From Escherichia coli (GTDB lineage: Bacteria; Pseudomonadota; Gammaproteobacteria; Enterobacterales; Enterobacteriaceae), in NCBI RefSeq assembly GCF_003018255.1, contig NZ_CP027440.1: a stretch of 64,000 bases of DNA; one strand, written 5' to 3'. This document shows, one piece after another, positions 10,932 through 45,855 of this stretch. The notes below the pieces were generated by a model that was not told where the DNA came from, did not search any database, and saw nothing but the letters and a program-made list of their open reading frames with translations. A program made the position numbers and the translations under genes. Positions within the stretch are counted from its first letter, which is position 1; each line of letters opens with the position of its first letter.

Positions 10932-11171
10932 TTAAAATCACAAAGCAAGAAATTATAAGTGAACTGATATTTATTATCATTTGAAATAAATTTAACTTAA
11001 CCGACAATTATTTGTGAAGTTCATCGCAGAAAATAAAAATAACTTTATCGCTATAAATTAAAATACACACCGAAATTCGTATAATTTCAGCAGTTGTTAT
11101 TTAGAATGATTAACTGGACCGCAACTGAAGCAAGAATATCAGGATGAAGCTTACCGCCTCATCCTGAATGG

Positions 11172-20257: not shown

Positions 20258-20626
20258 CTATACCCCAAAGCTTTCGCCACAGCCACATTCATTCTGGGCT
20301 TTAGGGTTGTGAAATTTGAATATCTGATTAAGTCCTTCACGAACGAAATCGACTTCCGTGCCATCAATAAACGGCATCGCTTGCAGCGGGACAAACAGCT
20401 TCGCGCCATCGTGTTCAAACAGCAGATCGTCTTTGTCCGGCTCGCTAACACTGTCGAGCACATAGCCAAAGCCCGCGCAGCCCGTTTGCTTCACGCCTAA
20501 GCGCACGCCGACCATACCCGGCTGCTTTGCCACCAGCTCGCGGATGTGGACAGCGGCTGCGGGTGTCAGCGTTAAGCCCTGCCAGGCGAAATCCTGTGGA
20601 TTAAAGGTTCCTGAATGCATGTCCAT
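20258..20626 (-). CDS. sufA: Fe-S cluster A-type carrier, 122 aa
   Basis: C-terminal CGCGESF motif; first gene of sufABCDSE. Confidence 0.95.
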
Positions 20627-20672
20627 CGATTTACCTCACTTCATCGCTTTCAGCGTATAACAGCATGTTAGT

Positions 20673-20685
20673 GATAATGATTATC
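20673..20685. promoter_or_regulatory. Fur box GATAATGATTATC within the sufA promoter
   Basis: Sits in the spacer of a minus-strand TTGAAC-16 nt-TAACAT promoter about 50 nt upstream of sufA. Confidence 0.6.
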
Positions 20686-20804
20686 AGTTCAACCCAGCAA
20701 ACGCAGGGACTTTAGCGTAAAACATGCTTTTTACCTGCTTTTAATAAGCATAGACCCTGATGTGTGGGTTAACAGGCACGCTAAGAATTAGGTATCTCAT
20801 TGTT

Positions 20805-20821
20805 AGATAATGATTATTATC
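20805..20821. promoter_or_regulatory. Second Fur-box-like palindrome TAGATAATGATTATTATCTA
   Basis: Near-perfect inverted repeat about 180 nt upstream of sufA; function not assignable from sequence. Confidence 0.3.
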
Positions 20822-20909
20822 TAAGGAGCATTAAGGCTGTGATGAAAAAGAAAAAGTTGTATTGAAAATGACTATTTAAGGGATAGGTAAAAAAGTGCAG
20901 CGTTCAGAA

Positions 20910-20985
20910 ATAAGAAAACCCTTAAGTCTGTGCGACACAGGCTTAAGGGTTTCTACCCCATCCGGCGCTTATCTCCGGCACTCAC
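20910..20985 (-). ncRNA. rydB: Candidate small RNA RydB (boundaries approximate)
   Basis: Minus-strand intrinsic terminator (stem aaacccttaag/cttaagggttt then TTTTCTTATTTC on minus) in the sufA-ydiH spacer where RydB is known to map. Confidence 0.4.
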
Positions 20986-21174
20986 AGTGGCTTAGCTCTT
21001 GAAGGGGCGATAAGAATAATCTCATAAAGCTAACCCGCCGTTTTAACACAAACTGCGATTAGTATTATTTTTGAACAATATCAGGCGGATAGATAAGCAG
21101 TATTAAGAAGGTCATCGAACCTGGACGGAGGTTAATCCAGGTCGATTTGGCAAAATTGCGGCATTAAGTCAGGA

Positions 21175-21363
21175 TCAATGCACGCCCAGACGCCAGGCAA
21201 AGTAGATTTCTTCTTTTAATTCAGCAGAAGAGAGAGTAAGCAGGTCAGCAAATTCAAGTTCTAGTTGTTTCAGACGTTTGAGATATTGGGCAGGTGAAAG
21301 ATTGCTCTGGTCACGGCGTAAAAATTCAATGGCCAGCTGGGTGGGATCAAGTTGAGTAGACAT
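21175..21363 (-). CDS. ydiH: Small uncharacterised protein, 62 aa
   Basis: Track ORF extends to 21444; the internal ATG at 21363 gives a 62-aa product matching YdiH. Confidence 0.65.
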   Translation of the reverse strand: MSTQLDPTQLAIEFLRRDQSNLSPAQYLKRLKQLELEFADLLTLSSAELKEEIYFAWRLGVH

Positions 21364-21462
21364 AGCATCCTCGCTTTTAGACAAGACCTGCACAGTATAC
21401 CACCGTTTACTGTGCAGATAATGACCAAAAGCAATATGCGTCACACTTTTCTGGTGACAACG

Positions 21463-21873
21463 TCACAAAATGGCGGTCGTTAATCGTGACGAACAGCACA
21501 AACGCCCTTTCTCATCGAAGATTTCAATCTGCCAGACCTGGTGACGCGAACCGAGATGCAACGGTTTGCATACGCCGCGCACCCGCCCTTCTCGTGCCGA
21601 GCGGACGTGGTTAGCATTGATTTCCAGACCAACCACCTTTTGCTCACCTTCGGTACATAAATAACCGGCAACGGAACCGATACTTTCGGCCAGTACCACG
21701 GATGCCCCTCCATGCAGCAACCCGAAAGGCTGCTTTGTCCGCGAGTCTACTGGCATTGTCGCTTCAAGGGTGTCATCACCAATATGTTCAAAGCGAATAT
21801 CCAGCAACCCCACCATGTTTCCTTCACCCATGGCATTCAGTGCTTCCAGGGTGATTTTTCGTTTCCATATCAT
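21463..21873 (-). CDS. menI: Hotdog-fold thioesterase (1,4-dihydroxy-2-naphthoyl-CoA hydrolase), 136 aa
   Basis: PaaI/YdiI-family sequence; start overlaps ydiJ stop. Confidence 0.9.
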   Translation of the reverse strand: MIWKRKITLEALNAMGEGNMVGLLDIRFEHIGDDTLEATMPVDSRTKQPFGLLHGGASVVLAESIGSVAGYLCTEGEQKVVGLEINANHVRSAREGRVRGVCKPLHLGSRHQVWQIEIFDEKGRLCCSSRLTTAIL

Positions 21874-26612: not shown

Positions 26613-26717
26613 ACGGTTATAAATCAACATATTGATTTATAAGCATGGAAATCCCCTGAGTGAAACAACGAATTGCTGTGTGTAGTCTTTGCCCATCTCC
26701 CACGATGGGCTTTTTTT
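26613..26717 (+). ncRNA. rprA: RprA small regulatory RNA (RpoS translational activator), about 105 nt
   Basis: Sequence ACGGTTATAAATCAACATATTGATTTATAAGCATGGAAATCCCCTGAGTGAAACAACGAATTGCTGTGTGTAGTCTTTGCCCATCTCCCACGATGGGCTTTTTTTT recognised as RprA, with terminal hairpin and T-run. Confidence 0.9.
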
Positions 26718-26855
26718 TAACATTTTTCCGCTTTGCTATCTCGCCCCTCACGCTTTCCAATAATGTTGCACAAGATACTGTGACTCTCTTCAAGCCGTCA
26801 GCAGGCTGATAATGTTATTTATATTTTATTGTTTATTTCATGCAGCCATTACACG

Positions 26856-45758: not shown

Positions 45759-45855
45759 GCGCAACTTGTTGTCTTCTCAACAAATTACTGCTTGCTCTGG
45801 CCCGCCATAATATTGATAATAAGAATCATTGTTATATAAATTATTATTAATTTTT

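Follow-up and report, generated by a model that had tools for sequence, protein, structure and literature searches.

The 548-nt interval between sufA and ydiH (positions 20627-21174) of a 64,000-nt stretch of Escherichia coli DNA, referred to below as the window, probably comprises two independent minus-strand units that have both been described previously, namely the gene for the small RNA RydB and a composite control region upstream of sufA. It is thus a known gene beside a known control region, and little in it is new. In enterobacteria the suf operon provides iron-sulfur cluster assembly in times of stress, and the sufA promoter is a textbook example of signal integration, here by Fur, IscR, OxyR and IHF; our analysis mainly confirms this picture and maps each of its elements onto the sequence. 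An initial annotation of this DNA had described the interval as a suf control region with two Fur-type palindromes and an orphan terminator on the minus strand. The anatomy, conservation and covariation that we report come from our own analysis, and the assignments of protein-binding sites and RNA ends are drawn from the literature.

The interval is matched by 5421 of 5426 complete E. coli genomes, with 100% identity to one strain and approximately 98.4% identity to K-12. Conservation beyond the species was assessed using 80 sufA loci from different Enterobacteriaceae species, which together with the window make 81 sequences, and E. coli allele counts were taken over 5414 genomes. As statistical controls we used shuffles of the region, these being dinucleotide shuffles of the 548 nt and, for the 7-1-7 Fur motif, local shuffles.

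RydB and the hairpin that follows it

The initial annotation stated that RydB maps between sufA and ydiH, and both a family search and the reference annotation agree. Rfam family RF00118 matches the minus strand from 21008 to 20948 over the whole of its 61-position model (83 bits, gathering score 50, E = 3.5e-18), and the curated MG1655 record NC_000913.3 annotates rydB inside the spacer between the two genes; in PGAP-annotated E. coli records the spacer carries no annotated feature, rydB included. A permissive Rfam scan of 20500-21500 found no family other than rydB. Both ends of the match coincide with RNA ends mapped in published work. Salmonella differential RNA sequencing (dRNA-seq) places the RydB start at the G equivalent to G21008, with a promoter string that ends in ...TTATGAGATTATTCTTATG(+1), and E. 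coli Term-seq (Adams 2021) calls one very abundant 3' end in the spacer, at K-12 position 1764708, which is C20948 of the window. The Term-seq strings span -50 to +10 around each 3' end, and their placement was checked with lpp and MG1655 coordinates. With its 3' end at C20948 the RNA is 61 nt long, coincides with the span of the Rfam match and stops at the base of a hairpin, and we accordingly place mature RydB at 20948-21008 on the minus strand. The MG1655 annotation of rydB (1764713-1764780, 68 nt, equivalent to 20953-21020 in the window) begins 12 nt upstream of the inferred +1, within the -10 hexamer, and stops 5 nt short of the Term-seq 3' end.

The hairpin itself, which had been noticed near 20915-20952 through its minus-strand U-tract, is real. 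It has 17-nt arms (20916-20932 and 20936-20952) with one C.A mismatch in the minus-strand RNA and a 3-nt loop, begins four nucleotides before the end of the RF00118 model and folds as minus-strand RNA at -22 kcal/mol (z = -5.6). It is followed by the T-run UUUUCUUAUUUCU at 20918->20906, which supplies 9 U in 13 nt. A simple terminator scan of the region returned no match, missing the hairpin because of its one internal mismatch. Comparative data are more telling, in that 11 of 16 hairpin pairs are changed on both sides and 98% of cells are paired, compared to 24-55% in slid controls, and 0 of 500 shuffles reached these values. In the closing stem of the rydB body (helix 1), 3 of 11 pairs are changed on both sides and 98.3% of cells are paired, yet most of its positions are invariant and it is therefore little informative.

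To follow rydB and the hairpin across the loci, a single-sequence search was followed by one with a covariance model built from 22 sequences. The two were found as one unit in 26 of the 81 sources, which include Escherichia, many Citrobacter, Salmonella, Leclercia, Silvania and Pseudenterobacter. In these 26 sources rydB is always on the sufA strand, at a distance from sufA of 382 to about 2300 nt and with ydiH adjoining or not: Salmonella and some Citrobacter have 770-2300 nt between rydB and sufA, other Citrobacter have 2 kb between rydB and ydiH, and Leclercia and Silvania have no ydiH. Four loci carry an entirely different stem sequence at the same place after rydB. Because the hairpin accompanies rydB while the neighborhood varies, it belongs to rydB and neither to ydiH nor to suf, and the label of orphan terminator must be dropped for a structure found immediately after the rydB body in all 26 loci, irrespective of the neighboring genes.

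From its fold, covariation and conservation, the hairpin with its T-run (20952->20916 and 20918->20906, together 20906-20952 on the minus strand) appears to be rydB's own intrinsic terminator, and RepRanger likewise assigns rydB a rho-independent terminator (RIT). Two observations fit this assignment less well. E. coli Term-seq calls no 3' end at the T-run, the only end in the spacer being 20948, so that termination at the hairpin is deduced from structure and conservation; moreover, the T-run is interrupted in four divergent loci. Both speak for a view in which the hairpin is mainly a determinant of RydB 3' processing or stability, or else a terminator for read-through from ydiH and menI, and not the rydB terminator at all, and the very high read counts of the sole 3' end at the hairpin base point the same way. 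We nonetheless regard these roles as very unlikely. With a 17-bp stem and 9 U within the next 13 nt, the structure has the canonical form of an intrinsic terminator and is scored as one by RepRanger, the 105-nt Salmonella RydB annotation spans the hairpin, and the hairpin stays with rydB where ydiH is 2 kb away or absent, which argues against a ydiH terminator.

The earlier proposal that the hairpin is the 3' end of RydB consequently survives in part: the hairpin does lie on the 3' side of rydB, but the abundant 3' end falls at its base (20948) and not past the U-tract. We infer that the terminator stem is removed from mature RydB after termination, as appears from the position of that end. 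In the scheme that we favor, rydB would be transcribed from its own extended -10 promoter, starting at G21008 and running through the 61-nt body into the hairpin and T-run, where transcription would terminate; a nuclease would then trim the stem to leave the abundant RydB that ends at C20948. The hairpin may also shield the suf control region from transcription upstream.

The rydB promoter is predicted from an alignment of 17 rydB upstream regions, in which an extended -10 element, TGaGATTAT at 21016-21024 (minus strand), lies 7 nt upstream of G+1 (G21008) and positions T87, G88, G90, A91, T93, T95, T96 and C97 are invariant. Farther upstream of the -10 element are a conserved TTTGTGTTAAA block at about 21043-21053 (minus strand) and, at 21043-21060 on the same strand, the block AATCGCAgTTTGTGTTAAAA, which is kept in Escherichia, Citrobacter and Salmonella. 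The latter lies 35-50 nt upstream of the rydB start, too distant for a standard -35 hexamer, and could be a regulator site. CRP control of rydB is reportedly claimed in a preprint.

Several further features of rydB and its surroundings were noted. An inverted repeat of 14 nt (79% complementary) joins 20984-20997 in the rydB body (GCTAAGCCACTGT) to 21028-21041 in the promoter spacer and is probably due to chance, the spacer being variable in other species. We rejected an antiterminator in which the rydB 5' region would pair with the 3' arm of the hairpin, as loci with a wholly different stem keep the same 5' region. Pairing of RydB with the sufA leader, assessed with RNAduplex, was no better than that of shuffles, 13.8% of which equal it. 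Finally, a short hairpin of the form ACCTGGA-N10-TCCAGGT at 21119-21142 (minus strand), some 30 nt past the ydiH stop codon, has arms that are invariant in seven Escherichia sequences and no clear T-run after it, and may be a 3' structure of ydiH.

The sufA promoters and their regulatory sites

The core promoter of sufA, P1, occupies 20658-20692 on the minus strand, with a -35 hexamer TTGAAC (20692->20687), a 16-nt spacer and a -10 hexamer TAACAT (20670->20665); read on the sufA strand it is TTGAAC-TGATAATCATTATCAC-TAACAT-N6-A, followed by a 32-nt leader and the ATG. Judging from promoter geometry and from what Lee 2004 and Outten 2004 are reported to have found, we take A20658 to be its start. 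The type 2 IscR site, also known as ORE-III, presumably lies at 20693-20714 (minus strand; -56 to -35 of P1), the position reportedly given in Lee 2004 and Yeo 2006; it overlaps the -35 hexamer and coincides with a CCCCTG...GGGTTGAA block that is conserved in our alignment.

The entire spacer of P1 is filled by a predicted Fur operator, TGATAATnATTATCA at 20672-20686, whose palindrome TGATAAT-g-ATTATCA has 0 mismatches to the 7-1-7 Fur motif. The initial annotation was correct in placing a 13-mer of this Fur box in the promoter spacer at 20673-20685, the full palindrome being the 15 nucleotides given here. The 19-mer at 20667-20685 matches the 19-bp Fur consensus at 16 of 19 positions and is the only match in the window at up to three mismatches, where 0.02 would be expected. 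Conservation of the box is nearly complete: of the 80 loci, 79 have it at -60 to -68 relative to the inferred sufA start with no more than two mismatches, and the remaining one (L058) has an insertion.

These placements agree with published work on the promoter, in which a Fur operator is already known. Mettert and Kiley (PMC8561392) describe the -35 element of PsufA as TTGAAC, within the type II IscR site, and the spacer as falling one nucleotide short of the usual length. PMC4676285 cites the repression of sufABCDSE by Fur, competition between Fur and IscR at the sufA promoter is reported in PMC8300815, and the sufA entry of the information-theory genome scan in Chen 2007 gives a single Fur cluster, at -53 from the ATG. 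That the Fur box fills the whole spacer explains both repression by occlusion and the reported competition with IscR: Fe2+-Fur would occlude P1, and apo-IscR would activate it from the site that overlaps the -35 hexamer.

Two additional elements lie farther upstream. Following the limits reportedly given in Lee 2004, we take the IHF site, ORE-II, to extend from -156 to -127 of P1 (20785-20814, minus strand), limits that contain the proximal arm of the second palindrome discussed below and not its distal arm. The core-equivalent sequence within it is TAACAATGAGATA at 20805->20793 (-135 to -147). At the aligned position the IHF consensus WATCAANNNNTTR is perfect in 46 of the 81 sequences, nearly all of them at -147, and is present with at most one mismatch in 70 of 81. 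The OxyR site, ORE-I, is assigned to 20861-20897 (minus strand; -203 to -239 of P1), where the conserved block CTATCnnnnAAATAGnCATTnnCnATACAnCTTT contains CTAT-N7-ATAG-N7-CAAT, CTAT being the form in most genera; across genera the part at 20886-20861 is conserved as CTAT-N7-ATAG-N7-C(A/T)AT. The putative IHF core therefore lies between the OxyR site and the promoter, matching the published order, as the passages of PMC8300815 and PMC8593673 that describe the region name three upstream elements, ORE-I (OxyR), ORE-II (IHF) and ORE-III (IscR/Fur), and PMC8593673 has the far-upstream OxyR site acting at the promoter through IHF. In this arrangement IHF would bend the DNA such that oxidized OxyR, bound about 210 bp upstream, could reach RNA polymerase.

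Around the IHF site of Enterobacter, some Klebsiella and one Citrobacter we also observed an 8-7-8 repeat, AATGCATT-N7-AATGCATT, at about -158 to -136 of the sufA start (loci L031, L032, L036, L037, L039-L041, L043, L044, L046, L081 and L009). Two of its variants retain complementarity (AATACATT/AATGTATT and AATCCATT/AATGGATT) and it bears a likeness to an NsrR half-site. The E. coli counterpart is just TCATT-N7-AATGA.

No stretch of the region is more invariant than the block AGGGTCTATGCTTA (20758->20745), which lies between the IHF site and the IscR site and is retained in all 80 loci. Its distance from the inferred sufA start is 128-131 nt, and up to 136 nt, in most loci, and 110-119 or 226 nt in four loci with indels. 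KCTAYRCTTAA is the -10 consensus of the sigma-S type, and the block matches it at 10 of 11 positions in the window and at 11 of 11 in 39 loci. The same consensus string occurs in PMC5650638. For comparison, Salmonella dRNA-seq (Ramachandran 2014, Table S1) lists a primary start of sufA 4 nt after TATGCT; its leader is 117 nt long and its promoter string ends in ...GGGTCTATGCTTAATA(+1). Early and late stationary phase share this start position, with few reads in support (4 and 2). Since the Salmonella start comes right after the AGGGTCTATGCTTA block, it implies a second sufA promoter farther upstream, with a leader that takes in the IscR site, P1 and the Fur box and with the block as a putative -10 element that would be of the sigma-S type by its consensus match. 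For the window we predict this promoter, P2, at 20742-20775 (minus strand), with a -35-like CTGTTA (20775->20770), 17 nt of spacer, a -10 hexamer TATGCT (20752->20747), a start near A20742 and a 116-nt leader. The partial set of E. coli suf region descriptions that we compared, to which neither the primary promoter papers nor E. coli start-site maps belong, contains no such upstream promoter.

When compared by eye with NsrR, IscR type 1/2, MarA/SoxS, ArcA, sigma-54 and sigma-E motifs, the block gave no convincing match to any. Just upstream of it, and overlapping the -35 element and spacer of P2, is a variable inverted repeat, CCCTG-N13-CAGGG (20755-20777, minus strand), which in several of the loci L003-L082 takes apparently compensatory forms (CTCTG/CAGAG, CCGT/ACGG and CGCT/AGCG) and is absent in Kluyvera.

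The second palindrome

The initial annotation had identified a second, near-perfect palindrome at 20805-20821, about 130 nt upstream of the first. The palindrome is real and the spacing holds, the two centers being 134.5 nt apart, but the coordinates are off by 1-2 nt: the 20-mer quoted for it, TAGATAATGATTATTATCTA, is found at 20804-20823, and the full element, TTAGATAAT-gatt-ATTATCTAA, covers 20803-20824. It consists of perfect 9-nt arms around a non-symmetric 4-nt spacer (9-4-9) and lies at -145 to -166 relative to the P1 start A20658. Its proximal arm (20803-20811) is within the IHF site, and its distal arm (20816-20824) is specific to Escherichia.

The two arms differ in their history. 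Whereas the proximal arm ATTATCTAA aligns with a conserved A/T-rich flank and the first bases of the IHF core, no counterpart of the distal arm TTAGATAAT could be aligned in other genera, and within the genus both E. albertii (CCGATAAGA) and E. whittamii (TCGGTAATA) have degraded versions of it. Palindromy is not a usual feature of IHF sites. From these alignments, the best explanation for the second palindrome is that it is the flank of an IHF site, to which a symmetric distal arm has probably been added in the Escherichia lineage. The proximal arm would be no more than conserved A/T-rich flanking sequence and the first part of the IHF core, and the resemblance to a Fur box would follow from A/T-rich sequence and the added symmetry. 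We further infer that the distal arm is without function or weakly functional. The description of both palindromes as Fur-type, apt for the proximal one, thus overstates the case for the second, which overlaps ORE-II, has only its IHF-site arm conserved beyond Escherichia, carries its hexamers 3 bp out of place and in its K-12 allele has three mismatches to the 7-1-7 motif. IHF, which the initial annotation offered as an alternative for this palindrome, is the better-supported option, given an arm that aligns with the IHF consensus site.

Several points count against the view of the palindrome as an incidental product of an IHF flank. A perfect inverted repeat of at least 9 nt with a spacer of at most 8 nt arises in only 2.35% of dinucleotide shuffles of the 548-nt region. 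The window allele agrees with 7-1-7 at 12 of 14 positions (2 mismatches), and just 0.4% of local shuffles do as well. At least 96.7% of the 5414 E. coli genomes carry both arms unchanged, which makes some function of the symmetry, weak Fur binding included, possible. The E. coli IHF core TAACAATGAGATA is itself two mismatches from the consensus (11 of 13), and the exact limits of the ORE elements, like the P1 start site, are provisional.

The same points bear on a rival explanation, in which the second palindrome is an auxiliary low-affinity Fur operator that arose in Escherichia atop the IHF site and at which Fur, in iron-replete cells, competes with IHF and damps the activation of suf by OxyR and IHF. 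Besides the rarity of its 7-1-7 match among shuffles and the near-fixation of both arms, this reading draws on the company that such matches keep, as three of the four others in the 64-kb window at two mismatches or fewer are known or predicted Fur sites (sufA, ydhY and ydiE), and on the report in Chen 2007 that Fur sites often overlap with an offset of 3 bp, the palindrome holding two 7-1-7-like frames that are 3 bp apart. We nevertheless consider it unlikely. The outer hexamers, GATAAT and ATTATC, are perfect but sit 3 bp closer than a 19-bp box requires, since in GATAAT-GATTAT the ATTATC begins 3 bp early. The best 19-mer match is 14 of 19, and the palindrome lacks three or more adjacent hexamers of the GATAAT type in canonical register. 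Two GATAAT units bind Fur weakly and at high concentrations only, according to Chen 2007 citing Escolar 1998, and the sufA row of the genome-scan table in Chen 2007 has the proximal cluster alone for K-12. Allelic variation argues in the same direction. The alleles differ in the spacer alone, which is GATT, as in the window, in 1977 of 5414 E. coli genomes (36%) and GGTT, as in K-12, in 3258 of 5414 (60%), and the K-12 form has three mismatches to 7-1-7, a level that 3.9% of shuffles reach. Among the 80 loci and the window, a match at two mismatches or fewer occurs in the window, L006 and L007 only. Finally, no genus other than Escherichia has the distal arm, and even E. albertii and E. whittamii have it only in degraded form; the proximal operator, in contrast, is kept across the loci.

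A fuller version of the Fur scenario, which we hold to be quite unlikely, is that an IHF bending site has been remodeled in Escherichia into a Fur-like 9-4-9 element and that Fe2+-Fur binds this weak second operator, about 135 bp upstream of the main one, in competition with IHF. If true, the OxyR/IHF (peroxide) route of suf activation would be conditional on iron status, and the T/C polymorphism of the spacer (36% vs 60%) would tune it.

The 7-1-7 Fur-like matches elsewhere in the window, with one or two mismatches, are at 10965-10979, 45814-45828 and 60269-60283, of which the first two fall on Fur clusters that Chen 2007 predicted for ydhY and ydiE.

A third reading assigns the distal arm to transcription, as the -10 hexamer (GATAAT, 20821->20816) of an extra sigma-70 promoter, ATCACA-16-GATAAT, with a sufA start near 20809. 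A consensus scan does pick this string (20843->20816, 9 of 12 matches), and Shimada 2014 lists the same string as an RpoD 'constitutive promoter' of sufA in the sufA-rydB spacer. The table in Shimada 2014, however, gives one consensus-type string for the spacer, which we assume was picked by consensus match within a low-resolution SELEX-chip peak and so do not count as independent of our scan. That scan misses the true P1 (8 of 12) and finds three sites where 2.0 are expected, the ATCACA region is not conserved outside Escherichia, and the Salmonella start at the invariant block is the only upstream sufA start that we found in data. An additional promoter at this position is therefore highly improbable, and the flank of an IHF site continues to offer the best account of the palindrome. 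As an RNA hairpin, the second palindrome was also set aside, since its fold reaches just -6 kcal/mol and its transcription would depend on read-through or on an unproven promoter.

Genomic setting and comparison with known systems

According to the open reading frame list and the RefSeq annotation of identical or near-identical E. coli records, the gene order around the interval is sufB, sufA, spacer, ydiH and menI, all on the minus strand, with the sufA coding sequence at 20258-20626 (start codon at A20626) and that of ydiH at 21175-21363. Elsewhere in the window, further Rfam matches (26613-26720, 51397-51555, 55396-55520 and 2674-2955) correspond to RprA, STnc540, the pheST leader, two tRNAs and HPnc0260, the last of which overlaps the tRNAs, but on the other strand, and probably arises as an artifact of tRNA similarity.

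What our analysis adds is modest. The K-12 annotation of rydB is offset by 12 nt, and neither it nor the Rfam model includes a strongly covarying terminator that is apparently trimmed from the mature RNA; the E. coli IHF site carries a lineage-specific, Fur-like palindrome; and the most invariant block of the region is, by its agreement with the Salmonella start, a candidate -10 element of an upstream sufA promoter. None of these changes the understanding of the system unless Fur is shown to bind the second palindrome.

Set against the canonical Fur box, be it the 19-bp GATAATGATAATCATTATC or the 7-1-7 motif, the proximal site is a close likeness, with 0 mismatches to the latter and 16 of 19 positions of the former. 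The second palindrome shares the perfect GATAAT and ATTATC and 12 of 14 positions of 7-1-7, yet its hexamers are 3 bp too close, its 19-mer match is 14 of 19, it is confined to Escherichia and its spacer is polymorphic. Compared to an IHF site, which consists of WATCAANNNNTTR and an A/T-rich 5' flank, most genera have the perfect consensus at the orthologous position, and the core in the window differs from it by two mismatches. With respect to the E. coli ORE-I/II/III architecture, all elements are at the expected distances from P1, each on a block that is conserved across Enterobacteriaceae; the published passages that set out this architecture make no mention of the 9-4-9 palindrome on ORE-II or of the invariant -10-like block between ORE-II and ORE-III. 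That block is nevertheless the same as the one at the Salmonella sufA start, GGGTCTATGCTTAATA(+1), where the leader is 117 nt compared to the 116 nt predicted in the window. RydB, for its part, is on the same strand and in the same place between ydiH and sufA as known RydB (RF00118, E. coli b4430 and Salmonella rydB) and does not differ from it in kind; the conserved terminator hairpin, which the Rfam model and the K-12 annotation omit, is included in the 105-nt RydB annotation of Salmonella.

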